Shown here: positions 32,744 to 57,794 of the stretch, piece after piece | How the letters are laid out: each line of letters opens with the position of its first letter | Position numbering within the stretch: position 1 is the first letter of the stretch | Sequence record: SRR2962707_856 | Strand: one strand, 5' to 3' | Length of the DNA: 58,761 nt | Translations under genes and position numbers: made by a program | The notes under the pieces: generated by a model | What the model saw: the letters and a program-made list of their open reading frames with translations, nothing else | Database searches by the model: none | Told to the model about the DNA's origin: nothing

Positions 32744-33475
32744 TTACCCTAGCCCTGCGCGGTCCGCTTCAGTTAGGAACACGCGCACCATCTGCAGTCC
32801 ATCCATCACGTATGCTCGACCGATTGGGCCGCTTGACACTGTATTCCCTCCCTTCGCTTCACCTATGGCGCTAAGCGTTTCCCCGTGCAGAACCGCGTTC
32901 TCGAATGGCTCCAACAATGGCCCTAGAGCCTTCTGCATGTCGTAGAGCATCCGGCGACTATCAATCGCTGCGTTTATCATCGCATCGCCGTTCCATGCGT
33001 TCCGGGTTGGTGATGGGTTCTTGGGCTTGAAGGTGACGGGCTTCTTGCTTTCGTCCGCGCCAGTCTCCCACTCAATCTTGTCTCGCTTTGCCAGTGACCG
33101 TCGAACTCCGCGGGTTTCTATCGTCCCGTCATCCTTGGCGTATGACCGTTCATCCAGATTGTACAAATCATCTCCGGCCAGGCTTGTGCCCATCAACTGG
33201 ACGTCTGCCGTGGCAGCGTCGTAAATCGCCCTGTAGCGCTCCGCTACCCGCAACAGAACGTCGTTGCCTTCCTTGCGCAATTGCTGGGCCAGTGGCCACG
33301 CCTGATTGTCGTTAGCGGGCGGTGTGAGCCATTCGGGGCGTCGGGATTCAAGCCGGGCAAGGCGGCGCTTCTGGGCTCTCACGGCTTTTTCCTCATGGGG
33401 GCGATAGGTGATGCGGGAGGGAAGGTTTGATCCGTCGCCGGATAAGGCTAGGTGGTTGTGTGCTGTGGCGGTCAT
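32744..33475 (-). CDS. Hypothetical protein, possible late transcription regulator
   Basis: Last early gene before late leader; C-terminal ETLSAIGE HTH-like segment. Confidence 0.55.
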   Translation of the reverse strand: MTATAHNHLALSGDGSNLPSRITYRPHEEKAVRAQKRRLARLESRRPEWLTPPANDNQAWPLAQQLRKEGNDVLLRVAERYRAIYDAATADVQLMGTSLAGDDLYNLDERSYAKDDGTIETRGVRRSLAKRDKIEWETGADESKKPVTFKPKNPSPTRNAWNGDAMINAAIDSRRMLYDMQKALGPLLEPFENAVLHGETLSAIGEAKGGNTVSSGPIGRAYVMDGLQMVRVFLTEADRAGLG

Positions 33476-34065
33476 TATGCTGCCCTCCTAGAGCGCTCTT
33501 CTGGGGTTTCTATGTATCCGCTCTCCTCTAGCCGCTTTCTCATGCGCTCCTCTTTTTCGGCCAAGTGTTTTCGACCGATCGGCTCATCCAGCTTCCATTG
33601 TTCTTCGATTTTCGGCGTCTTCACGTGGCAGCGGATGATTTCCTTTTTGCATATCTCCGTGATTAGGTTGTGGGCCTCTACAGCTCCACAGCGGAACCAC
33701 TCGCCAACGCCTCGCGTAAAATTGCGTCCTGCGTCTTCATGCGCCCAAGCCTCAACTTTCGTCGTGTGGTTTGTTTTCTCGAACTCAAAGACACGATGCA
33801 CGTAGAGCTTTGAGTGATTTCCGGTCTGCAGTGACCGCATTCTGGATAGAACGTTGCTGGCCTTGCCTATCTTGATGTATTCGGGGTCAGCCTCGCCGAT
33901 CACATAAACGAATCTAGCGCCGGGCGTTTTTGATCGGAATCGGTCGTTAGCGGCCAGAACAATCTCATCATGAAATCGCTCTAACATCGCCATTGTTGGC
34001 TTGGTGTTTCCGCCGCCAGACATTCTGACCAAGCTGTTATCATTCGCTGCCGTGGGTGGGGTCAT
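33475..34065 (-). CDS. GIY-YIG (T5orf172/MUG113-like) protein
   Basis: FVYVI...IKIG..SN..R...LQTGN...GEWF. Confidence 0.8.
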   Translation of the reverse strand: MTPPTAANDNSLVRMSGGGNTKPTMAMLERFHDEIVLAANDRFRSKTPGARFVYVIGEADPEYIKIGKASNVLSRMRSLQTGNHSKLYVHRVFEFEKTNHTTKVEAWAHEDAGRNFTRGVGEWFRCGAVEAHNLITEICKKEIIRCHVKTPKIEEQWKLDEPIGRKHLAEKEERMRKRLEESGYIETPEERSRRAA

Positions 34066-34271
34066 TGGGCATTCTCCAAGGCAGGACTGGAAGTCGAGTG
34101 GGTGGCACGCTCAAGTTTTTCGATGCGGGCGCGCAGATCCTTGTTCTCGGCTTGCTGCTTGTGCGCTGCGATGCAGGATGGGCATCTATGGGTCGGGTAG
34201 GGAGCGCAGTAGCCGGTTTCTTGCAACGCGCCTCCACAGCGCGGGCACTTTGGGTCAAACCACCCCATCAC
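34062..34271 (-). CDS. Small Zn-ribbon protein
   Basis: CPRC...CPSC plus coiled coil. Confidence 0.6.
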   Translation of the reverse strand: MMGWFDPKCPRCGGALQETGYCAPYPTHRCPSCIAAHKQQAENKDLRARIEKLERATHSTSSPALENAQ

Positions 34272-34600
34272 GTTGCCTCCACATTACGGGGCTCCGCTTT
34301 GGCGATGGCGTCACATACCCGATCGAACAGTTCGGCTGGAATCACTACGTCCTCGCTAACGCCGATGCCGTGATCATCATCGAACAGGCACTGCTCCCGA
34401 ACCTCCTTGAGCGCTGCCAGCATGTCAGGCGCTGCGGCAATCAGGTGGGCGTTTGCCTTTTGGTCGAAGGCCGCCATAGTGCTGCCGTCCATTCGGCACA
34501 CGTCTCTGGTGATGTAGCCATCGCTGGGCTTTGATATGATGTAGGTATAGCCACGGTCGTTTAGTGACCATGGTCCCGGCGTGTGCTTTCTCTCGCTCAT
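34268..34600 (-). CDS. Phage hypothetical protein (HTPGPW...ANAHLIAAAP type)
   Basis: KHTPGPW and ANAHLIAAAPDMLAAL motifs. Confidence 0.75.
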   Translation of the reverse strand: MSERKHTPGPWSLNDRGYTYIISKPSDGYITRDVCRMDGSTMAAFDQKANAHLIAAAPDMLAALKEVREQCLFDDDHGIGVSEDVVIPAELFDRVCDAIAKAEPRNVEAT

Positions 34601-34643
34601 ATCCCCTCCAGTGGTTCCGGGCCGTGGTGAAGCCCTTACCCCC

Positions 34644-34688
34644 AATATAGCGTTTTATGCGCATATGTCAAGTGATAAATGGCATATG
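34644..34688 (-). promoter_or_regulatory. Promoter with repeated operator
   Basis: CTTGACATATGCGCATAAAACG-CTATAT. Confidence 0.8.
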
Positions 34689-34692
34689 GGGC

Positions 34693-34717: not shown

Positions 34718-34720
34718 TAG

Positions 34721-35238: not shown

Positions 35239-35820
35239 TCACGCGGCGGAATCGGTTTTCATGGATTGGGCTTCGGATAGCCACTTCCTCACGATAGCCT
35301 CAGCCGCATCGGCCGCTTCCGCCTCTGTCTTGACCCTGATGATTTCCTGCCGCCCGAACCCCAGCCCATCCAGCAACGCGTGCCGCTCTACTTGTGCGTC
35401 GCTGGTCGTGTTCTCCCACTCCTTGACCTCGATAAGCCCCAACTGCGCGCCAGGCATGTAAACCCGCATGTCGTGCTCCCCGGTCATCATGCCGGTAGCC
35501 TTCGCCTTCACCTTGGCCTGCGCGCCGAACAATGGCAGCCCGTTCATGTCGCCGGCAAAGGCGAAGTTCATTCCGGCCTTGATCATCTGATTGAACCGTC
35601 GGACGATCGCCGCTTGAAGGCGCCACTCGAGAACTGGCGCGTCACCCACCTTGCGAGTGACCTTCCCGTCCTTCGACACACTGGTCGTGATGCGAACGCG
35701 CTTGCCGTTAATTTTTGTCGTCCGGACTTTCCGCTTGCCGGGCTCGGGCAGATCGTCGACGTGATTATCATTCGCAGCGCGAACGACCCGCGTTCCGTTT
35801 TTGGTGGTCCTGATTGCCAT
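35239..35820 (-). CDS. VRR-NUC-like PD-(D/E)XK nuclease
   Basis: EWRLQ...KATGM..GEHD...IEVK...Q. Confidence 0.7.
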   Translation of the reverse strand: MAIRTTKNGTRVVRAANDNHVDDLPEPGKRKVRTTKINGKRVRITTSVSKDGKVTRKVGDAPVLEWRLQAAIVRRFNQMIKAGMNFAFAGDMNGLPLFGAQAKVKAKATGMMTGEHDMRVYMPGAQLGLIEVKEWENTTSDAQVERHALLDGLGFGRQEIIRVKTEAEAADAAEAIVRKWLSEAQSMKTDSAA

Positions 35821-35899
35821 GGTATCTCCTGGTGGTTTGGGTGGTGATTTAAGGCCGGCTGAGAAAGTGCGAGTGCGCAATGTTGGAGATTTTTAAAAC

Positions 35900-36090: not shown

Positions 36091-36095
36091 CGCAT

Positions 36096-38342
36096 TCACT
36101 CTTCATAGCCAGCGCTTTTGACGAACGCCGCGTCCTTCCGACTGATGGCATCGCGCTCCCGAACTTCCTTCAATTTGCCTTCCTTGAGGAGCGCCTTGAA
36201 GATCATTCCGGCGCGCTTTTTGTCGGCCGTTTCGTCCACGTCCAACCCCAAGGCATATGCCACGGCTTGACCTGCCCAGTTCTTGGCATTGGGTGCTGGC
36301 TTGAACTCGCCGTTATCCAGCAGGGTCTCGATTTGCCGCAACTGGTCAGGCGTGACCGTCTCGACAACCTGCTCGCTTCCCGGCCATTGCCACTCCGTAA
36401 CAACGCCGGCATGGTCCTGCGGCTTGGAAAGCCCCGCACCGTTGTTCAGCGCCACGCTAACCAAGTGCCGCCACTCCATGCTGCCGTTCATGGCTGCGAG
36501 ATTGGCCTTACCTCTACTGACCGAAAAATACGAAAAACGGTCCTGCCGTGGCACGCCCGCCGCGGTAGCCTGGTCATCGGTCATGCGGTTCAATACACGG
36601 GCTGAACGCGCTGCCGCCAGCAGCGATACTGCCCCGCGAGCATCCTCTACGGTTACGTCCCGCCCTTCTGACTTGCGGACGTGGTGAACCACCTCAATGG
36701 CACAGTTGGTCACGTCGGCAATGTAGCCCCACAACTTGGCTACCCGGTCGATTGCTCCGTTGTCGTTTTCCGAAACGGCGTGCGTTGACACAAACGGGTC
36801 GATCACCATCACGTCGATTTTGTTGCGAACGATCTGGTCGATCACCGCATCGACGATGGGCTCCTGAATTATCACCCCGCGCTTGTCATCCCGAGCGACG
36901 ACGATTTCCTGCTCGCGCCCTGAGTCCAGAAACAACCCGTCAAGGTCTTTGGGCTTGAGTTTGTAATGCGTCGCGGCCGCCATGATGCGGCGGTCCATTT
37001 CGTCACGGGGATCCTCTGCGTTAAAGAGCCAGACGTTGAGGCGCCGCGGCGGCTTTTCACCCAACAACGGCCGGCCCGTCACCATGGAAAGCGCTTCCGC
37101 GATGGTCAGGCTAGTCTTGCCGATGCCGCCGGGCGACACAGTGACCGACACATACTTGCGAATCAGGTGCGTGCCGTACACGAACTCCCGCCGCGGCAAA
37201 AGTGCAGGGTCTGTCCACTGAAACGGTGTTGCCGTGACGGGTAGTTGCTGGGCACTACGACTGTGAGGCGCTGGTTTTTGTTGGGGCGCGGTGGCCGGTT
37301 CCTCGACAGGTGGTGTTGCGCTGGTGGCAGGGGTTTCCTGCGCCTCCGCGGCCGGTTTTCCGCCCGGTTCGCTGTCCGCTACGGCCGCCACCTTGCGCAG
37401 CTTCGCCAATAACTTATGCGGCATCCAGCGCTCGAGGTCTTCGTTGTTGTCATTGTCGGGCTCGGGTATGTGTCGCGGCTGTAGCATTCCGGCTTCCAAA
37501 CCTCGCTTGATCTTGGCGCGGATTTCCCTCTCCCCGTCCTTGGCCACAACGCCATTGGCTACCGCGGCTTGCCATAGCCCCTGCTCGGCCTCGGAACGAG
37601 ACAGGGCGCCGGCGCCAACGATCGTGCCAAGGCTATAGGCTGACTTGTTCACAGCCTCACCCCGCCCACCTGCCGTGGTGGTAGCAAGGTCGGACAGTTC
37701 TGCCTCTACTGCCCGCTCGACGTACCGTTCGTTTGCGCCGGGCTGATAAGTGTAGGCTGTGCTGTTGGCTGGTTGCGTGGGCGCTGCGGGTGGCAGGACG
37801 AGATCCAGCAGCCATTGTGGGGCTGGTGCAGGCGGCAGGTCGTTGAGCCATTCATATGCACGCCCGTCGGTCATGCAGCTACCTGGTGCAATGACATATC
37901 CACCGTCACCACGCACATCGAGACCGCGCCCTAGCGCTCCGCGATTGCGAACGCCTGGATGGTGCGCAAAATAGACATGGCGGCCGCCTGACGCAGTGCG
38001 TGCTTCTCGGGTGGGCGGTAGCGGGTCGTTGGCTGCAATGAGTGCGGCAAGCGTTTCCTCGCCCTGTTTGCCGTCCGCGATATCAACGTCCAGCACCCAC
38101 ACGCCAGTCTGCTCGCCGGTCGGGATACCAATCATTGCGTCGGGGTGATCGCTCCACCAACGGTCGATGATGCGCGGGAACTTGCTGGCCGACCGGAAGC
38201 CCTTGCTGGTGTAGGGCGACTTGGGTGGCATGAACTCACCGGTTTCGGCGTGGGGCTCCTCCTTGGCGCGGCACGGGAACACAGGCCATTGCTGGCTTGT
38301 AATGTAGTCGATCGCGACGGCGTGTGGTGTGGTCTGGGTCAT
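36096..38342 (-). CDS. Bifunctional Prim-Pol primase / RepA-like (AAA_25) helicase
   Basis: WPVFPC, IGIPTG..VLDVD, TASGGRHVYF, DVRGDGGYVIAP; SPGGIGKT, VIDPF, VVHHVRK. Confidence 0.92.
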   Translation of the reverse strand: MTQTTPHAVAIDYITSQQWPVFPCRAKEEPHAETGEFMPPKSPYTSKGFRSASKFPRIIDRWWSDHPDAMIGIPTGEQTGVWVLDVDIADGKQGEETLAALIAANDPLPPTREARTASGGRHVYFAHHPGVRNRGALGRGLDVRGDGGYVIAPGSCMTDGRAYEWLNDLPPAPAPQWLLDLVLPPAAPTQPANSTAYTYQPGANERYVERAVEAELSDLATTTAGGRGEAVNKSAYSLGTIVGAGALSRSEAEQGLWQAAVANGVVAKDGEREIRAKIKRGLEAGMLQPRHIPEPDNDNNEDLERWMPHKLLAKLRKVAAVADSEPGGKPAAEAQETPATSATPPVEEPATAPQQKPAPHSRSAQQLPVTATPFQWTDPALLPRREFVYGTHLIRKYVSVTVSPGGIGKTSLTIAEALSMVTGRPLLGEKPPRRLNVWLFNAEDPRDEMDRRIMAAATHYKLKPKDLDGLFLDSGREQEIVVARDDKRGVIIQEPIVDAVIDQIVRNKIDVMVIDPFVSTHAVSENDNGAIDRVAKLWGYIADVTNCAIEVVHHVRKSEGRDVTVEDARGAVSLLAAARSARVLNRMTDDQATAAGVPRQDRFSYFSVSRGKANLAAMNGSMEWRHLVSVALNNGAGLSKPQDHAGVVTEWQWPGSEQVVETVTPDQLRQIETLLDNGEFKPAPNAKNWAGQAVAYALGLDVDETADKKRAGMIFKALLKEGKLKEVRERDAISRKDAAFVKSAGYEE

Positions 38343-38411
38343 GCTGCCTCGCTGGTGGTGGTTGTGGTGGCGTGAAAGAAAAGAAAAAGCGCGATGGGCG
38401 CAAAATAGTGT

Positions 38412-38440
38412 TTGACAACTAGGGCCATTGGTCCTAGTAT
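38412..38440 (+). promoter_or_regulatory. Promoter with inverted-repeat operator
   Basis: TTGACA-N17-TAGTAT; inverted repeat ACTAGGGCCATTGGTCCTAGT across the spacer. Confidence 0.75.
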
Positions 38441-38467
38441 GAGGATAACGAAACAAGGAGAAGCACC

Positions 38468-38692
38468 ATGAACGCCCTCGAAAAAATCGCCGCAGCCCAA
38501 GCAATGCCCCACACGCACAAGGTCGTCACGACCTACGCCGACGGCGCGGTGCGAGAACTGGCTACCCGCAACGCTGCTGCCGCCGAAACCCACGCGATTG
38601 GCGAACGCCGCAAGGTTGGTCGCGACTTGATTTCGCGTGAGACCGGCAAGACGGTTCGGGTTGTTAGCGTTGATGTCCTGCCTATCGCATGA
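38468..38692 (+). CDS. Hypothetical protein (moron)
   Basis: AAGGAG SD, own promoter. Confidence 0.75.
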   Translation: MNALEKIAAAQAMPHTHKVVTTYADGAVRELATRNAAAAETHAIGERRKVGRDLISRETGKTVRVVSVDVLPIA

Positions 38693-38874: not shown

Positions 38875-39597
38875 TCATGCGGCCGCCTCGAACAAGTCCG
38901 GGTTGTTGTCATTTGCCGGACGTTTCGCCGATCGCGCCATGCCGATAAGAATGTTACGGAACGGCGTCGGTGTGTGTATCCTCGGCGTGCTGTTTTGCCC
39001 GCCACCTTTGGCGCCGACTTCACCCAACCGCTTGGCGCGCTTCAAGCCCATACGCTCGACCACAGCCGGGTCTAGCCGCGGCTCACCGATTCCCCAATCG
39101 AGCTCGGGCAGTTCGCACCCGTAGGCCAGCAATAGCGTCGGCTTGCGCGCATAGTGCCCATATCGGCCTTGCTCGACGCAGCACGTCCATCCGCCATAGA
39201 AGTCAGCGACAATCCACCCACCTGCCCGCGGTGGTTTGTTGATGCCAAAGTGCGCCCACGCATGGCTGCCCCAAGGATGCTCAATGACGCCACCGTACTT
39301 GCGAGCAGACGCTAGAGCCGCGGCAAAGCAACCACCGTCGTCTCCCTTGATTTTTCGAATGCCGGTGCGCTTGATGTAGAGCGGCTGGCCGGCCCATAAC
39401 TTGCCCCAACGCTGGCAAGGTGGGTGAGCGACTACAGGGTGCGGCCCGTCATACGAACGCGCGTCCCGTGCTTCGTCCCAAGGGTCAACGCCTGGCAGGC
39501 CGTAATAACAGCCGCCGGTTTCAACATAGAGCGCCGCAATGGTGCGCCCGCCCGCTACGCCAGTTGCTGGCGCGTTGTCATTCGCCGCGCGGGTCAA
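38875..39597 (-). CDS. Conserved phage protein with HPPC motif (C5-methyltransferase-like)
   Basis: PVVAHPPCQRW, GVIEHP, YGH..RKPT; TTGA-coupled start; ANDN at both ends. Confidence 0.6.
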   Translation of the reverse strand: MTRAANDNAPATGVAGGRTIAALYVETGGCYYGLPGVDPWDEARDARSYDGPHPVVAHPPCQRWGKLWAGQPLYIKRTGIRKIKGDDGGCFAAALASARKYGGVIEHPWGSHAWAHFGINKPPRAGGWIVADFYGGWTCCVEQGRYGHYARKPTLLLAYGCELPELDWGIGEPRLDPAVVERMGLKRAKRLGEVGAKGGGQNSTPRIHTPTPFRNILIGMARSAKRPANDNNPDLFEAAA

Positions 39598-39725
39598 AAC
39601 GGCCACCAAATCAGTGCGAAAAGCACGACCCATAAGAGGAAAAACACAGACCAGATGACGGCGGCAATTCGTCCCCACACTCTGGTCTCACGCTGGAATT
39701 CTGGTGCAAAATCTGGATCAATCAT
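39594..39725 (-). CDS. Small membrane protein (43 aa)
   Basis: TAATG-coupled; one TM segment. Confidence 0.55.
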   Translation of the reverse strand: MIDPDFAPEFQRETRVWGRIAAVIWSVFFLLWVVLFALIWWPF

Positions 39726-40084
39726 TAGAATGGTACTCCGTTCTTGACGGCATCCCGCACACCCTCGCCGCAATACGCCCAAACGGCCCGCACGAACTCC
39801 TCCACCTGGAGCGCGTCCCACGTAGAGAGGTCGGGGCCATTGGCTTCTATAAGCGGCCCAACAGCCTCAATTGCATGATCCACAGCGGCGCGCTCGTAGC
39901 CGTTCCACTGGCGTATGTCTTTGATTTCTGTGAGCATTTCCATGCACCTGTTGCAGAGGTAGTGAGGGTCTTGTTGGGGGTTTCCTACGCCCAGACCATG
40001 GGCGTGCCGGCCACATGCGTGGCAGGCGGTCGGGTAGCCCTGGTGGTCGCGGGTGGGGCGGAAGGGTAGAACGGGGGGGGTCAT
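39725..40084 (-). CDS. Hypothetical Zn-binding protein
   Basis: CHAC...C..C; ends VPF. Confidence 0.65.
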   Translation of the reverse strand: MTPPVLPFRPTRDHQGYPTACHACGRHAHGLGVGNPQQDPHYLCNRCMEMLTEIKDIRQWNGYERAAVDHAIEAVGPLIEANGPDLSTWDALQVEEFVRAVWAYCGEGVRDAVKNGVPF

Positions 40085-40884
40085 GCGGCACCGCCGAACA
40101 GGTCCGCTGGTTGTTCTGGACCTACCCCACCAGCTTGCGCAGGAGGGGTGTTGTCGTTGGCTGCTACAGGAACGACCTGCTCGTCACGAATGCGCCGCTC
40201 GGCTATCGCGAAGTAGTCAGGGTCACGCTCTATGCCGATGAAGCTGCGGCCAGTGTTGCGCGCCGCAAGTCCTGTTGTTCCGCTGCCCATCGTGTTATCG
40301 AGCACGGTTTCACCTTCATTCGTGTAGGTGCGAATGAGGTATTCCATGAGCGCGACGGGCTTTTGGGTGGGGTGGTGGCGAGCGCCCCTGTCATGGTCGA
40401 ACTCGAGAATGGATCTCGGGTAGCGCTCTCCGCTATTCTCGGTCACCACTTCGACCTGCTGGCCATAGTTAGTGCTTTGGCGGCCGGACTTAACGGTGTA
40501 CGGCTTACCGCTAGCCATCTGCGGGTTGTATGTGCATTGCGACCGATAGAATACCAGCACATTTTCATGCGCTTTCATGGGTTGCTTTTTGGCGTTCAGG
40601 TGCCCCGTGGCTAGCCGTTTTGACCAAATCCATTCGTACTTCAGATACTTGAGGCACGACACGCCGAGCGCCTTATCGAACGGTGTCTGCGCCGTCAAAA
40701 CAACCGCGCCATTCGGCTTGACCACGCGCCAATATTCAGCCCACAGATGGTCGAGCGGGATAATAGAGTCCCACTTGTTCTGCGTCGTCCCATACGGCAA
40801 GTCGCACAGGATCATATCGACACTGCTGTCCGCTAGGGTCGGCAGGATTTCAAGGCAATCGCCCAATCTCAGGTCAAAGGACAT
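40081..40884 (-). CDS. DNA N6-adenine/N4-cytosine methyltransferase (beta class)
   Basis: DLPY, HPTQKP, VLDNTMGSGTTG. Confidence 0.92.
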   Translation of the reverse strand: MSFDLRLGDCLEILPTLADSSVDMILCDLPYGTTQNKWDSIIPLDHLWAEYWRVVKPNGAVVLTAQTPFDKALGVSCLKYLKYEWIWSKRLATGHLNAKKQPMKAHENVLVFYRSQCTYNPQMASGKPYTVKSGRQSTNYGQQVEVVTENSGERYPRSILEFDHDRGARHHPTQKPVALMEYLIRTYTNEGETVLDNTMGSGTTGLAARNTGRSFIGIERDPDYFAIAERRIRDEQVVPVAANDNTPPAQAGGVGPEQPADLFGGAA

Positions 40885-41131
40885 GGAAATATGGCTCCAT
40901 CTCTAGACCAACATCGCCCGACCAGACGCACTCACTGTCTTTGTAAATGCGCACATTGACAGGCCACGTATCCTCCCATCCGTCATGGTTGGAGTGGTAG
41001 TCCTCGGCTAAGTCTGTTGCGACCAGTCGCCAGTCGTCATTGTAGGTTGGCTGGTTTTTGGGGAAATCCCAGCGATCAGACCAGACGTCCGATTGGCGTT
41101 CTGATCCCGCGCAGTATTGGAGTTTTGTCAT
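40874..41131 (-). CDS. Hypothetical protein
   Basis: ATGA-coupled; AEDYHSNHDGWE..WP. Confidence 0.65.
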   Translation of the reverse strand: MTKLQYCAGSERQSDVWSDRWDFPKNQPTYNDDWRLVATDLAEDYHSNHDGWEDTWPVNVRIYKDSECVWSGDVGLEMEPYFHVL

Positions 41132-41916
41132 GCGGCCACCTCGCTTGCGGCATTGTCGTTGTCGAACATGCTGACCGGCTTGGGTGGCTTGCGATGTTCT
41201 GTGAACATGTCGCCTTGGCTGTAGGCTTTCTCGATGCGCTCGCACGCCACGTCGAAATACTTGGGGTCCAGTTCGACACCGATAAACTTGCGCCCCATAC
41301 GAGCGCAGGTAACGCCGGTCGTGCCACTTCCAGCGAACGGATCGAGGATTGTCTCGCCGGGGTTGGTGAAGTCGGCCAGCAGTTCGCGCATAAGCGGAAG
41401 TGGCTTTTCGGTCGGGTGCCTGCCGTCGCGGTCGCGCTGGTTGGTCAGGTGGGTATAGACGCCGCGCTTGCCACCAGCGTTCCAGCGCGAGTGGCCCTGC
41501 CCGTTCCATGCAAGCGGCATGGACTCGTAGCCCATTGCTGGCATCTGGCCGTTTAACTGCGGCGTGCTGTCAGGCTTCACCCATATCATCGAGCGCTTAT
41601 ACTTGCTGCCGGCCGCCTCCATAACGTCGCGCCAATCGCCGACAGCCTCGGCTTGGCAGAACAGAAGTATCCAGCCTTGTGACAGTCGGGCAGCCTCTTT
41701 GGCGACAGCGGTTCGCAGGTCTTCGGTTATTGCCGTGAAATCAAGGTCGACGTTGACGCCAGTCTTCACGCTTTTCTGCGTGCGCATCATGGAGCGGTGC
41801 GCCTCCTTTTCGTATGGAGGATCTCCGATGACATGATTCACCGGATCCAAACCGGCCATAACTTCCAGGCAATCGCCATTGTACAACGTGCAATCGCCGA
41901 TGCGTTCAATGCGCAT
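41128..41916 (-). CDS. Second beta-class DNA methyltransferase
   Basis: DPPY, HPTEKP, ILDPFAGSGTTG. Confidence 0.92.
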   Translation of the reverse strand: MRIERIGDCTLYNGDCLEVMAGLDPVNHVIGDPPYEKEAHRSMMRTQKSVKTGVNVDLDFTAITEDLRTAVAKEAARLSQGWILLFCQAEAVGDWRDVMEAAGSKYKRSMIWVKPDSTPQLNGQMPAMGYESMPLAWNGQGHSRWNAGGKRGVYTHLTNQRDRDGRHPTEKPLPLMRELLADFTNPGETILDPFAGSGTTGVTCARMGRKFIGVELDPKYFDVACERIEKAYSQGDMFTEHRKPPKPVSMFDNDNAASEVAA

Positions 41917-42018
41917 GGTGCATCTCTCCTCAAGGTGGCGCACGCAGGTGGTGACTGGGTGCTGTGTGATATAGCGGAGCGCATAAAACGCCCCGCTCTA
42001 TATGCTATAGTATATGCC

Positions 42019-42291
42019 CTACTGCGCTTGCGCGGCAGTGGGGCATGGCTTCCAGTGTGTGGGCTTTATCGATGGAACGCCGTCATCATTGACAGCCCAG
42101 CAAATACCATCCGTCCATCCGTCTGGAGGCTCCTGATCTTCGGCCATGTACCAGCCGCCGCTGTCCTCTCCGTCACTGTTGAGAAGGCCGTTGGTCCACG
42201 CGATAATATTGTCATCGCCATTGCCGGGGATGCGCGCTTGGAATGCGGTGCCATCCTTCGGTGCAGTTTCTATCGGTTGCCAATCCATCAC
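42019..42291 (-). CDS. DUF551-like protein
   Basis: WQPIETAPKDG...PTHWKP. Confidence 0.75.
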   Translation of the reverse strand: MMDWQPIETAPKDGTAFQARIPGNGDDNIIAWTNGLLNSDGEDSGGWYMAEDQEPPDGWTDGICWAVNDDGVPSIKPTHWKPCPTAAQAQ

Positions 42292-43046
42292 CTCGCCACC
42301 TTATCTTCCCAAACCCTAAACCCCGGAACGTCCCTTAGTCCCCCACGCACCGCGCCGTCCGCCATGCTCTGCACCAGCGCAAGGAACGCCGCTTCGTCAC
42401 GCTCAAAGGCCCAATCTAGAGCCGCCCCGGGGTCGACCAAATCAGCCTTCCAAACCGACCTTAAACCCGTTCCAGTCGTCGCGGCTTTCTCAGTCCGGCG
42501 CGCAAACTTACTGGCCTCCTTGCTTTCCGCCAGCCGCTCCTCTGCGCGCTCGCGCTCCTCAAGGTTGCCCGACGATACACGGATAGCGTCTTGTGCTTCC
42601 TGCTCCAATTTAGCAGCCAGTGCCGCAGCTTCCGCTGCTCTAGCTGCTTTTTCTTCCTGAACTTTCCGGCGCCACACGGCCAGCAAATCACCAAGCGCGG
42701 CCTTGCCCATATCGACCTTGCCACGCTTCGCTTGCACATATGGGTTCCACTTAGCTTGCACTGCCGCTGCCGCGTCGTCGTGCGGCTTCTTTTCCGCCTT
42801 GCGCAGTTCCTCGGCTTCCTTGCCGGCCTCGTGCAGCCCGTTGTAAAGTTTCTCGAGCTCGTCGTGCATTTCCTGGGAGGCGATGGCCTCGCCGTCCGCG
42901 AAGTTCTTGGCCTCATCGTACAGGTCGTCGATGCGCTGCTGCACGGTAACGTCGGGCGGCGGGTTGTTGTGGCCGGGTTGGGGTGCGTTGTCGTTGGTGG
43001 GTTCGGGGTATAGGTCGAACTCGGTGGTGGTGGCTGGTGCGGTCAT
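42288..43046 (-). CDS. Coiled-coil hypothetical protein of recombination module
   Basis: GHNNPP start, RKAEKKP, VPGFRVWE end. Confidence 0.7.
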   Translation of the reverse strand: MTAPATTTEFDLYPEPTNDNAPQPGHNNPPPDVTVQQRIDDLYDEAKNFADGEAIASQEMHDELEKLYNGLHEAGKEAEELRKAEKKPHDDAAAAVQAKWNPYVQAKRGKVDMGKAALGDLLAVWRRKVQEEKAARAAEAAALAAKLEQEAQDAIRVSSGNLEERERAEERLAESKEASKFARRTEKAATTGTGLRSVWKADLVDPGAALDWAFERDEAAFLALVQSMADGAVRGGLRDVPGFRVWEDKVAR

Positions 43047-47437: not shown

Positions 47438-47968
47438 CTACTCGACCCTCAAGCGATCGTCGTTTTTCCCGTGGTTCTCGTGAAAGCCATACCTATCATT
47501 GGCAGCCTCCCTCGCAAGCTGAGCCATCGGAAGGGACGCATATCGGCCAAGGGAGATGTTCTTCCCGTTCACGGTTATTTGTGCCTGCCAAAGCCCCTTT
47601 TCCTTATTCCAATAGACGCCTGTGAAGCCGCTGGTGTTTGTAGCGTGCATTGAAACGTTTTGCCCGTTGGAAGTCCTGTCAGCGTCTCGTAGATTGTCCC
47701 AAGCATTGTTTGATCGGCAATGGTCTATGTGGTCTACCTCTTCTGGGATGTAATTTTCCATGTATAGGTACGCCAGTCGATGCGCCCTATACCTAGAATA
47801 ATCGACACGGATCAAAATGTAGCCCTTGTCGCTTAAGCTTCCAGCACTTTTTCCAGCCCACCGTCCGTTCCATTTCTCATTGCCGTCTTGTCGGCGAAGC
47901 CATGTAAAGACACCCGTAACCGGGTCGTAGTGCAAAACCTCGCGCAATCTCTCCGCCGTCAGCATCAC
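47438..47968 (-). CDS. HNH-AP2 endonuclease
   Basis: YDPVTGVFTW, AHRLAY, VDHID..RSNNAWDNLR, NTSGFTGVYW. Confidence 0.9.
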   Translation of the reverse strand: MMLTAERLREVLHYDPVTGVFTWLRRQDGNEKWNGRWAGKSAGSLSDKGYILIRVDYSRYRAHRLAYLYMENYIPEEVDHIDHCRSNNAWDNLRDADRTSNGQNVSMHATNTSGFTGVYWNKEKGLWQAQITVNGKNISLGRYASLPMAQLAREAANDRYGFHENHGKNDDRLRVE

Positions 47969-48276
47969 CCCTCCTCCGCCACAGCTTGCGCCGTGGCGTT
48001 ATTGAGGAATGTGGCGTGGTGGTACGCTGATTGGCTGGCCTCGACACTTGCCCACTTAGGAAAGAACTCACGCTCGAGCGTTGTCACAGCATCAGCCAAA
48101 TCGCCCCGCTGGATTTGCGAAATGGCAGTGCGCACCTCGTCGTTGTATTGCGTTTCGTGCTCCGCCCTGCGGCTACGCAATTCCTCGACCAGCGTGTCCG
48201 TTGGCACCTCTGGCAAGACCATATCGAAGTCTATATCGACCTCGACCATGCACGATGTTTGGCGACGTCTAGCCAT
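47965..48276 (-). CDS. Hypothetical protein
   Basis: TGATG-coupled ORF. Confidence 0.6.
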   Translation of the reverse strand: MARRRQTSCMVEVDIDFDMVLPEVPTDTLVEELRSRRAEHETQYNDEVRTAISQIQRGDLADAVTTLEREFFPKWASVEASQSAYHHATFLNNATAQAVAEEG

Positions 48277-49367
48277 CACGCCGCCTCCGCTCGACCAGAC
48301 ACCCGCATGGGCATCAACACCCCGCACCAGTCCGGGTTGCCGCCTGTAATGCGCGCTGGCGAGCCGCCATCGCGGATTTCAAACGTCACCTTGTCGCCTT
48401 CTACCGACCCGACCAGTTCGGCCAGATAGCGCGCGTTGTAGCCAATCTCGAAAGGTTCGCCGTCATAGTCGGCCACGATTTCGTCGTCAGCTTGTCCTTC
48501 CTCGCCCGTGACGGAAAGCACAACCTGGCCCGGCGCAACTTCCAGGCGAACCGCTTTGCCGGCACGTTCGGATGCGAACACACCGACGCGGCCAACTGCG
48601 GTTAGCAGCGCCTTGTTTTCGAGCGTGACCAGTTTGTCGTTCTCTTTGGGGATGACGCGCTCATAGTCAGGGAATGAGCCTTCGACCAATTTGGAAACGA
48701 TAGTCGTGTCGCCCTGCACGAAACGGATACGTCCCTCGCCAATATCCACCTGCACGGTGCCTTCTGGAATTAGGCCAACCGTCTTTCGCGGGACGATGAT
48801 GCCCGCTGCCAAGGTAAGCTCCGGCCCGTACACAGCGGCCAGTCGGTGTCCATCGGTTGCCACGGCACGCAAGCGACCGTCGCTGGTTGTGTGGACAAAC
48901 ACGCCGTTGAGATAGAACCGGGTTTCCTCGTTCGACATGGCGAACGTGACTGGCGCGAACAGCGCAGCAAGGTCAATGGTTGCCGTTGTGGTGTAGTCGG
49001 GCTGCTTGAGTTCGGGGAACCCGTCAACTGGTAATGTCGCAACCTTGAACCGGCTGCGCCCCGATTTGACGACAAGGTGCTCTTGTTCCGTAGTCAGCGT
49101 GATTTCGCTCCCCGCTGGCATGCGTTTGGCAATGTCCAGCAACGTGCGCGCTGGCGCGGTCGTGGTTGGCAAGTCGCCGGCGCATGGCGCGGACGTTGTG
49201 ATTTCGATGCCCAGGTCGGTTGCACGCAAGTGCAACTGCCCGTCGGTTGACGACAGTAGGACGTTCGCCAAAATGGGATAGGTGTTGCGAGTCTCGACCG
49301 CCTTGCTTGCCTGCGTTAGCGCGGCAACAAGGTGGGATCGTTCGATGGTCAGGGTGCCGGTGGGCAT
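48276..49367 (-). CDS. dnaN: DNA polymerase III beta sliding clamp homologue
   Basis: PILANVLL, ATDL, EETRFYLNGV, VATDGHRLA, FPDYERVIP, VLMPMR. Confidence 0.93.
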   Translation of the reverse strand: MPTGTLTIERSHLVAALTQASKAVETRNTYPILANVLLSSTDGQLHLRATDLGIEITTSAPCAGDLPTTTAPARTLLDIAKRMPAGSEITLTTEQEHLVVKSGRSRFKVATLPVDGFPELKQPDYTTTATIDLAALFAPVTFAMSNEETRFYLNGVFVHTTSDGRLRAVATDGHRLAAVYGPELTLAAGIIVPRKTVGLIPEGTVQVDIGEGRIRFVQGDTTIVSKLVEGSFPDYERVIPKENDKLVTLENKALLTAVGRVGVFASERAGKAVRLEVAPGQVVLSVTGEEGQADDEIVADYDGEPFEIGYNARYLAELVGSVEGDKVTFEIRDGGSPARITGGNPDWCGVLMPMRVSGRAEAA

Positions 49368-49407
49368 GTGTGTGGGTCTCCTCTGGTGGGTGCAGTGTGG
49401 TGGGCTG

Positions 49408-49701
49408 CTATCGTCCGTGATATTGCCAAAGAACGGCGTTGCAATAAGCATGCACCGCGCCTTCGGTCAGTCCGGTCTTGTGGCAATGCTGCAAGTGGAC
49501 CGGGTGCTTTAGAAAGTTCTTCGGGAAGCGCCGCCAGTTGATTGGCTTTGATGTGACTGCGCGTGGCGCAGGTTCATCAAGTGGGCCGTGGCAGTGCATG
49601 CACTTGCCGCCCTGCTCCTCCATGTACTGCTCGCGAACTTCTCTCCGCTCCGCCCATTCAAGAGCGTCGTAGCGCACCGGCAACTGGTACGGCATGTTCA
49701 T
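49408..49701 (-). CDS. Endonuclease VII-like protein
   Basis: QGGKCMHC...HLQHCHKTGL..GAVHAYCN. Confidence 0.7.
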   Translation of the reverse strand: MNMPYQLPVRYDALEWAERREVREQYMEEQGGKCMHCHGPLDEPAPRAVTSKPINWRRFPKNFLKHPVHLQHCHKTGLTEGAVHAYCNAVLWQYHGR

Positions 49702-49767: not shown

Positions 49768-50358
49768 CTACCCCCAAGGACGTGCCTTCTTGGCACCGCC
49801 AGACTGCGCCGCAGGGCGGTTGTCGTTCGCGGCAGCGCGGTTGTCGTTTGCGGCGGGCTGCTGCTGTGACACGGCGGCACCAGCGTCCACAAACGGCTGC
49901 GGCACTTGGCCGTCCTGGGGGAAATAGTAGCGCTTCACCTCGTTGCTCTGGCGCATGATCTGGTTGCCGTTCGCGTCGAGAAGCGGCACGCCGTCCTTCT
50001 TGGCGGGATACGGCTTGCCGAAACCAACCTTGGCGACGAACGGGCGGAAGTGGAATTCCTCGGTGTTCTCGTAGTCTTCGAGTTCGCACGCCTTGGCCAG
50101 CTTGCCGATATTGCGATTTCCAATGTCCTGAGCCTGCGGCGTGCTGTGCTCGCCCCACTCGCTGATGTAGAAGGTTCTGCCCTCATATTCCTCCGGCGCC
50201 AGAACCGTGCATTTGAACTCTGCCTTCTTGCCGTTACCCTGCTCCTTGTAGTCGGACTCGACGACCTCAAGCCCGTAGATGCCCTCCGGGAGCGGGCTGT
50301 AATCCGATTGGGAAGTGTCGACGTCGTTCACATTGGTTTTCTTGCCAAGACTGGCCAT
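49768..50358 (-). CDS. DUF669-like single-stranded DNA-binding protein
   Basis: YSPLPEGIY...EYEGR...NEVK; follows Sak4-like ATPase; PW C-terminus. Confidence 0.7.
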   Translation of the reverse strand: MASLGKKTNVNDVDTSQSDYSPLPEGIYGLEVVESDYKEQGNGKKAEFKCTVLAPEEYEGRTFYISEWGEHSTPQAQDIGNRNIGKLAKACELEDYENTEEFHFRPFVAKVGFGKPYPAKKDGVPLLDANGNQIMRQSNEVKRYYFPQDGQVPQPFVDAGAAVSQQQPAANDNRAAANDNRPAAQSGGAKKARPWG

Positions 50359-50393: not shown

Positions 50394-51188
50394 TTAGGCA
50401 GCCTTGGCAGACTTCCCATTGTCGTTCGCAGCGCCCGGCAGATATTTGGCCAGTTCGGCGAAGCCCTGACCCTTCTTGTACGGGATGCTATCCGGCAGGC
50501 TGTACCGGTTCTTCGCCACGAAGCCCGCCTTCTCATTGAAGTGCATAAGGCGTTCGTTGCCGCCCTCGGCGTGCGAAACCTTTTTGTTGAACCCGACCTC
50601 TTTTTCCTTGAGCGAGATTCGGTAGTTCACGAACGCGACGACGTCGGCCTGCTCACGGACCATCGCATTGGCGCGCTTGTGCAGCTTCACGGTGTACCGC
50701 GAATATGGATCCGACGTCGGACTGTCGAAGCGAATGATCTCCGGGTGGGCAAGCTGCACCACAAAGATGCCGGCACGAGACATTGCCGAAACAGCCTTCA
50801 GATATTCGTCCCACTCGGCGTCCGCTTCGATGTAGCCTTTGCCGTACCCAGGCTCCTCGATCGACGACACGCCAAGCCGCTGACACGTCGCGGCCCAAAC
50901 AAGGCTTTCGAGCCCGTCCAAACTGTCGACGATCACGGTTTGAAAGTCGTGCTCTTCGGTCAGCAGTTCGCCGAAAATATCGAGCAGGCTATGGAATGAC
51001 TCGATTGTACCGGGCGTCGTCAATTCAACGTCGCTGGGCGGCGTTTCGCCTTCCGTCGGCAGGTAGAGCACCGGGCCGGGGAATTCCGCTGCAAGGCTGG
51101 TTTTGCCGACGCCATCGACGCCGTAAATCACGGTACGCGGCGGGTTGTTGGTCTTGGTGGTGGTAAGGGTGGATAATGATAGGGCCAT
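50394..51188 (-). CDS. AAA_24 / Sak4-like ATPase
   Basis: IYGVDGVGKTSLA, TVIVDSLD, GYGKGY, AKNRY. Confidence 0.88.
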   Translation of the reverse strand: MALSLSTLTTTKTNNPPRTVIYGVDGVGKTSLAAEFPGPVLYLPTEGETPPSDVELTTPGTIESFHSLLDIFGELLTEEHDFQTVIVDSLDGLESLVWAATCQRLGVSSIEEPGYGKGYIEADAEWDEYLKAVSAMSRAGIFVVQLAHPEIIRFDSPTSDPYSRYTVKLHKRANAMVREQADVVAFVNYRISLKEKEVGFNKKVSHAEGGNERLMHFNEKAGFVAKNRYSLPDSIPYKKGQGFAELAKYLPGAANDNGKSAKAA

Positions 51189-51190
51189 GC

Positions 51191-51382
51191 TTAGAATGCT
51201 CCGAACCAGATGCCAAAGCCATGCACAATGCCAATGGGCGCCATGATTGCTCCCGCAATCAAGAAGGCCCAATTAGCGGTCTGCAGGCAGACGATTACGT
51301 GAGTTGCCCATGCCGCGATGCTGGCAATGACAAGTGCGAAAATTGAGAGCGCAAGTGCCGCGCCCGTTAATGGGGTGTCCAT
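51191..51382 (-). CDS. Membrane protein
   Basis: Two TM segments; strong SD. Confidence 0.7.
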   Translation of the reverse strand: MDTPLTGAALALSIFALVIASIAAWATHVIVCLQTANWAFLIAGAIMAPIGIVHGFGIWFGAF

Positions 51383-53255: not shown

Positions 53256-53549
53256 TCAGTGCATCTTGCGCTTGAGCGGCACTACGTTGTCTGGAAGTTC
53301 TTCTTCAGCTGGCAGTTCGGCCTGTCCCGCGTCCGCCGACTCGATCAGCGTCAGTTGTTCGTGATACCACTCGCCCTGCTGCGGGTTGCCCGCCGCGTCG
53401 GCGTATTCGACCACGTACAAGCACTCGTGGTACTTGCTGAACGTGCAGCACGCGATACGGCCCTGCACCTTGGTGCCCAAAATCTGCACCAGGTCGTTCA
53501 GGTCGAACGGGTAGTCGTCTGGTTCGGTTCTGTCGTTGGTGTCTGTCAT
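53256..53549 (-). CDS. Hypothetical protein
   Basis: ATGA-coupled; resembles upstream neighbour (F.LN..V...G....Y.VE....G...W..E). Confidence 0.65.
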   Translation of the reverse strand: MTDTNDRTEPDDYPFDLNDLVQILGTKVQGRIACCTFSKYHECLYVVEYADAAGNPQQGEWYHEQLTLIESADAGQAELPAEEELPDNVVPLKRKMH

Positions 53550-53779
53550 GCCGCCCGCCTTACCGGCACGTCCGCCGGATAGACGTCGCGTTCCTTGAAC
53601 CACTGGCGCGGCGTGCGACCGTCGGGCAGCGTCTGCTCGATCCAGTATTGGTTGCCGGTGGGGCCTTGCTTGCGTTCGATCACGCGGCCCGTCAGCGTGA
53701 CTTCGACGGTTTCGTTGAGGGTGAAGGCGAAGTCTGTAGCGAGCATAGGCACGCTGTTGTCGTTGTCTGCTGTTTTCAC
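53546..53779 (-). CDS. Hypothetical protein
   Basis: GTGA-coupled; begins MKTADNDN, ends RRAA. Confidence 0.65.
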   Translation of the reverse strand: MKTADNDNSVPMLATDFAFTLNETVEVTLTGRVIERKQGPTGNQYWIEQTLPDGRTPRQWFKERDVYPADVPVRRAA

Positions 53780-53937
53780 GCCGCCACCTCGCTAGGCAGG
53801 ACGGCCAGCGCAATATCGGCATAGCGCGCCTTGGTGGATCCGACGTATTCGGTCAGCTTACGCACCGTGCGGTAGGGGCGGCCTGACTTGGTTGCGTGTG
53901 TTGCGGGAGGGGTGTTGTCGTTTGCTGGTGTTCTCAT
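53776..53937 (-). CDS. 53-aa protein, first clear gene of leftward early operon (absent from ORF track)
   Basis: GAGGAG SD; MRTPANDNTPP...LPSEVAA; GTGA overlap with next gene. Confidence 0.75.
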   Translation of the reverse strand: MRTPANDNTPPATHATKSGRPYRTVRKLTEYVGSTKARYADIALAVLPSEVAA

Positions 53938-56521: not shown

Positions 56522-56753
56522 GTGGTGCCCGGACGATATTTGGAAGCGTGCGCAGTATTACTGGCGTCTGGACGGATGCTCAGCGCCAACGCCCAACACC
56601 TACGCCCGCGCCCTCCTCACCGCCCGTCAGCAAGGTCGTGATGAAGGGCTGGAAGAAGCTAAGGCAATAGCGTCGGGTTTCATGGACAAAATCAGTGCGG
56701 AAGACTTCGCCGCCGCCATTCGCGAAAAGATCGGGGAGCATGGGAATGGGTGA
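56511..56753 (+). CDS. Hypothetical protein
   Basis: GGAGGG SD; overlaps neighbours. Confidence 0.6.
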   Translation: MKPEWCPDDIWKRAQYYWRLDGCSAPTPNTYARALLTARQQGRDEGLEEAKAIASGFMDKISAEDFAAAIREKIGEHGNG

Positions 56754-56994
56754 TTGGCGAAACCTCATGAACGAGCCCCACTTTTTCAAAGCGGGCGCTC
56801 GATACCATGTCCTGTCTTGGATGGGGTTCAACCCTAAAGTGCCCCACATGGACGGCACGTCGATAATCGTATGTTCCGAGCCGACATGTGAGTTTAACGG
56901 GCGCGCGGCGCATCAGTTGGAAGAGCAAGGCTATGACATAACGAAGATTCTGCCGTTTGCCGCCGCCCTCCGCAAGTCACAAGGGGAGCGGTGA
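56746..56994 (+). CDS. Hypothetical protein
   Basis: GGAG SD; CSEPTCEFN. Confidence 0.55.
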   Translation: MGDWRNLMNEPHFFKAGARYHVLSWMGFNPKVPHMDGTSIIVCSEPTCEFNGRAAHQLEEQGYDITKILPFAAALRKSQGER

Positions 56995-57128
56995 TGACCG
57001 ACACAGACCCCTACATCGATTTCGACCAGCCTGAAGCTGCGGACAAGTGGACCCGGCCCAACACGCAACCACCCGTCAGGGTGCGGCGCGATAAAGAAAG
57101 GAGGAGGAGACATGCAAGCGGCGAATGA
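56994..57128 (+). CDS. Small hypothetical protein (44 aa)
   Basis: TGATG-coupled; fills the operon gap. Confidence 0.45.
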   Translation: MTDTDPYIDFDQPEAADKWTRPNTQPPVRVRRDKERRRRHASGE

Positions 57129-57489
57129 TAATGGGCGGGATGGATACGTTTACGTCATCACTTCGACAGAACAAAAAGCCTTCAAGGTTGGATACACGTC
57201 GTCAGGCGTCCGCATTCACAACCTGCAGACTGGCAACCCCGCCAAGCTGACTCTTATGCGGCAAATCCCTGCAACAAAGGCAGCCGAGCGAGGCGTGCAT
57301 GCGGCGCTATCGGATTTCATAATTCGTGGCGAATGGTTCACTGACAGCGGCCTCGCTAATTGTCTTGTTGACGACTTGCTGAATGAATTCCATGGGTGCC
57401 AGCAGGACGGTCGAGTTCTCGAAGAATCTGACGCATTTAAAGCCGCAAAAAACGCGGTAAGGTATTTCCGCTTGGGAGTCGCGGCATGA
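57112..57489 (+). CDS. GIY-YIG (T5orf172/MUG113-like) protein
   Basis: GYVYVI...FKVGYT...LQTGNP...RGEWF; begins MQAANDN, ends GVAA. Confidence 0.8.
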   Translation: MQAANDNGRDGYVYVITSTEQKAFKVGYTSSGVRIHNLQTGNPAKLTLMRQIPATKAAERGVHAALSDFIIRGEWFTDSGLANCLVDDLLNEFHGCQQDGRVLEESDAFKAAKNAVRYFRLGVAA

Positions 57490-57794
57490 CCCCAGGCAAC
57501 GATAACAGACCGTTCACACCAGAAACCCTCGCCGATCGGTGGGGGTGTTCTGCGCAACACATACGCGACATTATCCGGGCCGGCGACTTGCCAGCATTTC
57601 GGATTGGTCGCTTAATACGAATCCGCCCTGAAGCCGTGAGAAAATTCGAATGTCCGAGTCCGACCAACGACAACCAGCCTACCGATGCAAGCTATTCCGC
57701 GGATACTGGCACGCCGTCTGGATCGACGAGGCAGGGCGAACGCAACGGCGCTCGCTCCGCACCAAGGATCGTGAAGAGGCCGAGCGCAGCCTAA
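57486..57794 (+). CDS. xis: Excisionase-like HTH protein
   Basis: FTPETLADRWGCSAQHIRDIIRAGDLPAFRIGRLIRI; adjacent to int. Confidence 0.85.
   Translation: MTPGNDNRPFTPETLADRWGCSAQHIRDIIRAGDLPAFRIGRLIRIRPEAVRKFECPSPTNDNQPTDASYSADTGTPSGSTRQGERNGARSAPRIVKRPSAA

Follow-up and report, generated by a model that had tools for sequence, protein, structure and literature searches.

The predicted proteins of a 58,761-nucleotide stretch of DNA, SRR2962707_856 (the window, taken at its full length), which by its gene families is a 16-3-like temperate siphophage, carry two short peptide motifs at frequencies far above expectation: the tetrapeptide ANDN, mostly close to a terminus, and a terminal Ala-Ala (AA). 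Both recall the alphaproteobacterial ssrA tag, and the balance of the sequence evidence tips towards reading them as copies of the host tag's two functional ends, encoded in the phage genome and placed in flexible termini of mostly non-virion proteins. The two motifs favour the same proteins even where they stand far apart in the chain, and this split architecture is statistically real.

Over-representation of ANDN and terminal Ala-Ala

The sample comprised the 83 open reading frames (ORFs; 18,197 residues) of the window, and the null distribution was obtained from 2000 within-protein residue shuffles. NDN was observed 30 times against 1.33 +/- 1.12 in the shuffles (maximum 6), ANDN 21 times against 0.14, and AANDN, the commonest phage form, 13 times against 0.01. 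The motif was not chosen beforehand, as ANDN ranks first among the over-represented tetrapeptides of the window proteome. Terminal Ala-Ala closes 19 of the 83 ORFs (1.07 in the shuffles, maximum 6), while every other terminal dipeptide occurs at most twice. In a six-frame scan, 34 NDN were found, of which 30 stand in gene frames on the coding strand; chance alone would give about as many as the remaining four, which are out of frame or antisense. The 21 ANDN sites are encoded by 14 different 12-mers in which all third codon positions vary and, because the codons vary in this way, selection acts on the peptide and not on the DNA.

The position of the motif is equally uneven: 26 of the 30 NDN are at most 40 residues from a terminus, against an expectation of 36% (p = 2e-8), at least 18 of the 30 fall outside the best family envelope when domain and motif lists are compared by hand, and the N-terminal copies begin at residues 5-9, downstream of good ribosome-binding sites. 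About two dozen unrelated proteins (24), roughly a quarter of the ORFs, carry NDN. Most take part in DNA metabolism and most lie outside the virion block, whose 21 ORFs hold two NDN and two AA ends, compared with 28 and 17 in the other 62 ORFs; the endolysin, a sigma factor, the major head protein and the portal are also among the carriers.

Association between NDN and distant Ala-Ala ends

In the window, an AA end is found in 14 of the 24 NDN proteins and in 5 of the 59 others (p = 4e-6), and in twelve related prophages in 26 of 53 against 41 of 295 (p = 6e-8). The association holds where the two motifs are apart. When only window proteins with NDN confined to their first 40 residues are counted, five of eight end in AA, against 5 of the 59 without NDN (p = 0.0012). 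A pooled set was assembled from the window, the twelve related prophage pieces, phage 16-3 (annotated coding sequences, CDS), RHph_X2_25 and three more prophage stretches; here the proteins with N-terminal NDN only end in AA in 10 of 26 cases against 72 of 654 (p = 4e-4), and those with internal NDN only in 17 of 32. With the window left out, all distant NDN copies taken together still have an AA end in 22 of 47 proteins (p = 1e-8). Homology was corrected for, roughly, by single-linkage clustering of 772 ORFs into 538 families, after which AA ends are found in 16 of the 32 families whose NDN stands over 40 residues away from the C-terminal end, against 28 of the 485 families without NDN (p = 1e-10). 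The original prediction, which had inferred separable modules, is supported to the extent that ANDN and the terminal AA behave as such and yet tend to occur together. In the split class, the head and the AA end are 22-186 residues apart, and the native spacing is absent by definition.

The carriers that illustrate these arrangements are given below.

33475-34065, minus strand: T5orf172-domain protein of 196 residues, split type, starts MTPPTAANDN and ends RRAA; AANDN at 34036-34050 (residues 6-10), terminal AA codons at 33478-33483
35239-35880, minus strand: phrog_824 protein of 213 residues, RAANDN...DSAA; AANDN at 35764-35778, AA at 35242-35247
38875-39678, minus strand: phrog_12600 protein with both kinds of tag; N-side AANDN at 39574-39588 and C-terminal tag PANDNNPDLFEAAA (ANDN at 38905-38916, last two Ala codons at 38878-38883)
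53546-53779, minus strand: protein of 77 residues, MKTADNDN...RRAA; DNDN at 53756-53767, AA at 53549-53554, GAGGTGG before the GTG start
53776-53937, minus strand: protein of 53 residues, MRTPANDN...EVAA; ANDN at 53914-53925, AA at 53779-53784, GAGGAG before the ATG
57112-57489, plus strand: T5orf172-domain protein, MQAANDN...GVAA; AANDN at 57118-57132, AA at 57481-57486, AGGAGG before the ATG
57486-57794, plus strand: excisionase-like helix-turn-helix protein (Xis), MTPGNDN...PSAA; NDN at 57498-57506, second NDN at 57666-57674, AA at 57786-57791
43509-45203, minus strand: superfamily-2 helicase with motifs in the C-terminal tail; AANDN at 43611-43625, ANNDN at 43563-43577, no AA, ends EDIIPF
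49768-50358, minus strand: SSB-like protein with tail AANDNRAAANDN; motifs at 49840-49854 and 49819-49833, no AA, ends KKARPWG
50394-51272, minus strand: Sak4-like annealing protein with the complete C-terminal tag copy AANDNGKSAKAA; AANDN at 50418-50432, AA at 50397-50402
41128-41943, minus strand: DNA methyltransferase, ends DNDNAASEVAA; DNDN at 41152-41163
40081-40884, minus strand: DNA methyltransferase; AANDN at 40150-40164, 22 residues ahead of the AA end
45791-46480, minus strand: phrog_984 protein; AANDN at 45851-45865, 19 residues from the end, no AA end
42288-43046, minus strand: exonuclease with N-terminal TNDN; NDN at 42987-42995, no AA end
36096-38504, minus strand: primase/polymerase-ATPase; DNDN at 37446-37457, between the primase and ATPase matches
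4837-6093, minus strand: DNA-repair exonuclease, ends AANDNQPQRRAA; AANDN at 4861-4875
30910-31827, minus strand: homing endonuclease; N-terminal PANDN (ANDN at 31789-31800) and C-terminal tag AANDNEIHGCSEAA (AANDN at 30940-30954)
8948-9724, minus strand: endolysin, ends PANDNHENEERDAA; ANDN at 8978-8989

Both ends of the T5orf172 protein at 33475-34065 lie outside its domain, since the Pfam match spans residues 52-138; GGAGA stands 8 nucleotides upstream of its ATG. In the phrog_824 protein, NDN begins at residue 37, ahead of the family envelope (46-207), and in the phrog_12600 protein, where TRAANDN is preceded by an in-frame TTG, the motifs are at residues 33 and 256 and the envelope covers 45-255. 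The HTH_17 match of Xis spans residues 10-54, and the Xis of phage 16-3 starts MRVAANDN. Homologues of the Sak4-like protein nearly all have AA-ended tails, with or without NDN. The primase/polymerase-ATPase has a second copy, ENDN (NDN at 36759-36767), within its ATPase part, which may be due to chance. The last three carriers given above (4837-6093, 30910-31827 and 8948-9724) fall outside the range covered by the original prediction.

All the motif examples named by the original prediction (the ORFs at 33475, 35239, 38875, 53546, 53776 and 57112, Xis, the helicase and the SSB-like protein) are present in the sequence, with one addition: the protein at 38875 had been listed by its N-terminal motif, and TRAANDN is indeed there, but the protein also bears the C-terminal PANDNNPDLFEAAA and so has an AA end.

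Several other window proteins show variant or decayed copies (1332-2102, 46480-47436, 47438-47968 and 21016-21399, all on the minus strand), among them an HNH endonuclease ending AANENRLKILRPRVAA and other tails with AANDR or AANDT. A Cas4-like exonuclease ends GAANDDGEET, at a place where its homologues in 16-3 and in one relative (L012) have AANDN. The DnaN-type beta clamp (48276-49451, minus strand), with three Pfam clamp domains, has an AA end without any NDN.

Distribution of the motifs across phages, hosts and outgroups

The counts for host DNA, prophages and outgroups, all obtained with one ORF caller, are as follows.

Host DNA: 2 NDN in 98,049 residues; AA ends in 8 of 392 ORFs
Twelve Hyphomicrobiales prophage pieces: 65 NDN in 69,572 residues; AA ends in 67 of 348 ORFs
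Four outgroup loci: 1 NDN in 25,442 residues; AA ends in 9 of 111 ORFs, six of them paralogues

The motif habit belongs to the phage and not to the host. In one host genome, 16 of the 23 ANDN-coding sites fall within one prophage region, and in a Rhizobium genome (G003) the sites cluster in a 16-3-like prophage and in a second phage-like element. Phage 16-3 itself has 17 ANDN, 20 NDN and 19 AA ends in 109 CDS. There are 20 ANDN-coding sites in RHph_X2_25, one in Roseobacter phage CRP-902 and none in the distantly related Pseudomonas phage NP1, which shows no enrichment and has one AA-ended ORF among 60. The reversed pattern, used as a control, gave no match in four phage records, in two of which the forward pattern gave 18 and 20. 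A seeming excess of AA ends in L014, a gammaproteobacterial relative (7 of 29 ORFs), was set aside, six of the seven being paralogues of one repeat protein.

The second, smaller element encodes an AAA_25 protein, TerL and a portal (L078 13653-17435, L079 104-1306; in G003, contig C1, at about 3118-3127 kilobases, kb). Its TerL starts with AANDN and ends in AA, and its portal ends GANDNRSKLDNAA. Because this element also carries AANDN and AA ends, the motif habit is not confined to one prophage type.

Both the gene set and the motif habit are common to the window and the 16-3-like temperate siphophages of Hyphomicrobiales. Along its full length (100%), the window helicase shares 52.5% identity with its counterpart in Rhizobium phage 16-3, and the closest prophage relatives of the Sak4-like protein are found in Pelagibacterium (85%) and Devosia (81%), followed by other Hyphomicrobiales.

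Correspondence with the host ssrA tag and SspB

Host tags were taken from the hosts of relatives, namely five genomes that bear related prophages. All five encode an alpha-type transfer-messenger RNA (tmRNA), and the predicted tags, ANDNYAEARLAA (twice), ANDNYAPVAQAA, ANDNNKAPVALAA and ANDNSREAVALAA, all begin ANDN after the alanine borne by the tmRNA itself. Because of this extra alanine, a tagged host protein reads AANDN..., which is the same as the commonest phage form. The ANDN tag is present in all the alphaproteobacterial hosts examined, and the published Caulobacter tag likewise starts AANDN (PMC9393093).

The adaptor gene accompanies the tag: an SspB gene (PF04386) adjoins ssrA in four of the five genomes, and the fifth contig stops just after ssrA. 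Of 41 genomes sampled from the order, 40 have SspB, and structures have been solved for the Caulobacter and Agrobacterium proteins (2qaz, 2qas, 2nys). In three Hyphomicrobiales genomes (G001-G003; L022-L024) and in Roseomonas, sspB lies at most about 150 bases from the tmRNA gene. The search of 50 window proteins against Pfam revealed no SspB-like domain, and no tmRNA was found in the window with ARAGORN or with Rfam at the gathering score. The window motifs sit inside ordinary ORFs ahead of their own stop codons and are therefore not added by tmRNA.

Where a C-terminal copy is combined with an AA end, NDN is followed by 7, 7, 7, 9, 9 and 9 residues in the window proteins and by 5-13 in 14 relatives, compared with 8-9 in the native host tags. 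Judged by their sequence, these C-terminal copies with AA are full look-alikes of the tag, as exemplified by AANDNGKSAKAA on the Sak4-like protein.

Doubled motifs on the helicase and SSB-like tails

The original prediction had also pointed to doubled motifs without terminal AA on the helicase and the SSB-like protein. They are present, and the doubled AA-less motif is a conserved trait of the lineage. In relatives, the plan of both tails (AANDN, ANNDN and ..EDIIPF in the helicase; AANDNRAAANDN and ..RPWG in the SSB-like protein) is kept and the rest of the tail varies. The helicase plan is seen in eight of nine tails compared, namely the window and seven of eight relatives, and the motif of the eight relatives is doubled in four, single in three and absent from one; it is doubled in phage 16-3. 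For the SSB-like protein, doubling was seen in the window and in one relative (L002), and another relative (L003) has no motif. The gap between the two ANDN copies is mostly four or five residues, usually four.

A scan of IMG/VR with the pattern ANDN-x4-ANDN, whose design fixes the gap, yielded at least 124 stretches. Among the 80 of these that were examined, 38 are helicase tails ending ..PF and 11 are tails of SSB-like proteins, with ANDN doubled and PW at the tip, so that the two kinds together account for at least 49 of the 80; seven are low-GC ANDN arrays, apparently unrelated, and 24 are other loci.

The C-terminal end of the helicase (window 43509-43530) carries an acidic ..[DE][DE][IV]PF tip in nine of nine tails (window, L001, L004, L006, L007 and L009-L012). 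In bacterial SSB, an acidic C-terminal ..IPF tip is the hub-binding motif, and the resemblance suggests that the helicase tail also mimics this motif. The C-terminal end of the SSB-like protein (window 49768-49800) has a basic ..[KR]PW[GSK].. tip that is conserved in relatives, the rest of the tail being variable. A separate high-GC family (GC about 0.66; L094, L105, L124, L136, L142, L143, L165, IMG/VR) has ..MIGANDNGAGIANDNEALV.. about 240 residues from the C-terminal end.

Proposed reading of the two motifs

The head of the alphaproteobacterial tag is said, in work by Lessner and by Chien (both 2007), to be the part read by SspB, and the C-terminal Ala-Ala of the tag is the part that enters ClpX. 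On balance we favour, as the simplest, an interpretation with two separable modules that would work together even when far apart, ANDN being a docking site for SspB and AA the element that engages ClpX, because of the identity with the host tag and of what has been published on the pathway. SspB tethers ssrA-tagged proteins to the ClpX N-domain (PMC5422525), and it also delivers RseA, which is not ssrA-tagged (PMC5587285, citing Flynn 2004).

Under this interpretation, SspB would bind ANDN on any loose end and would tether the carrier to the ClpX N-domain through its own C-terminal peptide, thereby raising the local concentration of the carrier's AA end at the ClpX pore. Since it is tethering that would concentrate the AA end, the two modules need not adjoin. 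ClpXP would take as substrates, with help from the adaptor, all three kinds of carrier: those with full twelve-residue copies, those with N-terminal ANDN and a distant AA, and those with internal ANDN and AA. Early enzymes, nucleases and regulators (Xis, for instance) would thereby be short-lived, and how long they last would depend on the capacity of SspB and ClpXP. Carriers of ANDN without AA, such as the helicase and the SSB-like protein, would bind SspB without being degraded by this route; their purpose could be recruitment of ClpX for remodelling, competition for SspB, or another degron.

A number of observations weigh against the SspB-ClpXP interpretation. Ten of the 24 NDN proteins in the window have no AA end, and because of these ANDN must have a role beyond completing a degron. 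A degron would be unexpected on the major head protein and the portal, yet both have copies. The residues that follow NDN in phage proteins are unlike those of the host tags, and binding could be weak if SspB needs more than AANDN. Nor does an ANDN tag in the host always go with phages of this kind: a Roseomonas prophage relative has one NDN in 20 ORFs, although its genome has both tag and SspB, and Roseobacter phage CRP-902 has a single ANDN site. As for the split arrangement, the N-terminal class becomes marginal in the pooled set once the window is removed (5 of 18 against 67 of 595, p = 0.049), and in phage 16-3, with annotated starts, none of the four proteins with N-terminal NDN only is AA-ended. 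The ORFs were called mechanically, and some copies scored as internal in relatives may in fact be N-terminal; spurious ORFs depress the AA baseline, and homologous proteins do not count as independent cases.

We put forward, as a speculative extension that is rather unlikely, a threshold device in which leaky prophage expression would be cleared by SspB-ClpXP and in which, on induction, the ANDN/AA proteins together with the abundant AA-less SSB-like and helicase tails would saturate SspB and ClpXP. Saturation would render the phage proteins stable all at once and deregulate the host clients of ClpXP, a protease essential in Caulobacter, and the positions of the modules in the split architecture would tune the lifetime of each protein.

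Alternative explanations

An unlikely alternative is that some reader other than SspB docks on ANDN, either a phage hub or a host factor of replication or recombination, the likeness to the tag being convergent or incidental and the AA ends an independent degron. The most conserved copies are indeed those on the replication tails of the helicase and the SSB-like protein, beside the ..IPF and ..PWG tips and without AA; DNA-metabolism proteins make up most of the carriers, and many phage ORFs have no known function. Against it stand a five-residue match to the tag head that includes the extra alanine, the strong co-occurrence of NDN and AA ends, and the native spacing of the C-terminal copies. 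The carriers also extend to the endolysin, the sigma factor, the head protein and the portal, and to the TerL and portal of the second element, and the absence of an SspB-like domain from the 50 window proteins compared with Pfam counts against it as well.

The idea raised in the original prediction, that the AA-less and often doubled copies act as SspB competitors (a sponge), and its variant in which they are ClpX handles for remodelling, would have these tails stabilise other tagged proteins or reshape the replisome; we regard it as improbable. Its basis is the conservation of the doubled AA-less motif described above (helicase in the window, four of eight relatives and 16-3; SSB-like protein in the window and L002; 49 of the 80 viral loci examined, out of at least 124), and another phage encodes its own SspB analogue (PMC5587285). 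A gap of four or five residues would nevertheless, under a naive model, be too short for one tail to bridge both sites of the SspB dimer, and doubling is not universal, given the single helicase motif in three relatives, its absence from one, and the lack of any in the SSB-like protein of L003.

That ANDN serves as a cleavage or docking site for the phage trypsin-like peptidase (6810-7475), as had also been proposed, is very improbable. A Trypsin_2 peptidase is encoded both in the window and in phage 16-3, but its gene sits with those for lysis, and the annotation of the 16-3 homologue reads 'typically periplasmic', while the proteins that carry ANDN are enzymes of the cytoplasm; moreover, trimming 4-10 terminal residues has no evident use, and the link with AA and the identity with the tag would be left unexplained.

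The chance that the motifs reflect a DNA- or RNA-level repeat, or chance or composition, is negligible: nothing but their recurrence speaks for it, codon variation and the frame-specific copies rule out the repeat, and the shuffle excess, together with the empty reversed-pattern control, rules out the rest. A translation-level run of Asn/Asp codons is likewise unsupported, as NNN (2) and NEN (4) are rare in six frames, DND (11) is partly due to DNDN, and the conserved Ala before NDN does not fit.

Gene content of the window

Gene families in the window were assigned by PHROG and Pfam scans. Its main regions are the following.

57650-58660: integrase, ends ASSLEF, without tag
About 10-30 kb, minus strand: virion block with terminase, portal, major head protein, tape measure and tail genes
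7-10 kb: lysis region
33-54 kb: replication and recombination module, with the enzymes primase/polymerase, superfamily-2 helicase, two methyltransferases and several nucleases, and with the SSB-like protein, the Sak4-like protein and the beta-clamp homologue as further members

A cluster at 2054-4840 (minus strand) encodes a dATP/dGTP diphosphohydrolase (PF18909), an HD-type dNMP phosphatase and a metallophosphoesterase; it may serve to reshape the nucleotide pool and may point to modified DNA. Four plus-strand ORFs without family match (21499-24641) break up the minus-strand virion block and could be a moron cassette or non-coding DNA. ARAGORN reports a 90-nucleotide tRNA-Ala(tgc) at 32472-32561 (minus strand); at the gathering score, Rfam finds neither a tRNA nor any other family in the window, and the call is doubtful.

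Comparison with known systems

In the literature searched, a single limited collection, no description of ANDN motifs in phage proteins was found, and the AP-16-3 genome paper does not mention ANDN, ssrA, tmRNA, ClpX, degron or proteolysis. If SspB and ClpXP do read the motifs, an entire lineage of temperate phages, among them the long-studied Sinorhizobium meliloti phage 16-3, has handed control of about a quarter of its proteins to a single quality-control pathway of the host. This would be a natural counterpart of engineered split degrons, with the halves of the tag as movable parts, and it would add a new layer of lysis-lysogeny control and offer portable degrons for rhizobia.

The closest point of reference is the native alphaproteobacterial ssrA tag, with which the phage motifs share the (A)ANDN head, the Ala-Ala end and, in C-terminal copies, a near-equal length after NDN; tag and adaptor are both present in related hosts. 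Unlike the native tag, the phage motifs are gene-encoded and not trans-translated, the middle of the tag is not copied, and the two ends are often about 20 to more than 180 residues apart, or only one of them is present.

The RseA fragment of E. coli has its adaptor-binding site apart from its C-terminal degron. It is likewise a protein without ssrA tag that SspB handles (PMC5587285, citing Flynn 2004), but it is one host regulator whose motif is unlike the tag head, whereas here about two dozen phage proteins copy the head.

Integration-dependent immunity in mycobacteriophages relies on ssrA-like C-terminal tags on Int and Rep, and there too a temperate phage puts its own proteins under host proteolysis by encoded ssrA-like tags (PMC9635641). 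In that system two proteins are tagged, at the C-terminal end only, and the tag is lost on integration, attP lying inside the gene. The present phage differs in that its integrase is untagged (ASSLEF), the presumed adaptor-binding head is copied too, and about a quarter of the ORFs are involved; no repressor gene crossing an attachment site was identified in the window, and integration-dependent immunity of the BPs type is therefore not matched.

Pseudomonas phage pf16 also touches the SspB pathway, through an encoded SspB analogue (PMC5587285). Whereas pf16 carries an adaptor, this phage carries presumed adaptor-binding motifs and has no SspB domain among the 50 proteins compared with Pfam. 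The SSB-type hub tails ending ..IPF are similar in being short linear motifs on variable, presumably disordered tails, and the window helicase ends ..IPF beside its ANDN; unlike such tails, ANDN is spread over functionally unrelated proteins, beyond the partners of the replisome. What sets this phage apart from the tagged mycobacteriophages and from pf16 is that the presumed adaptor-binding head of the tag is copied, that this occurs proteome-wide, that the halves are used apart, and that the habit is conserved in a lineage that includes a classic model phage.

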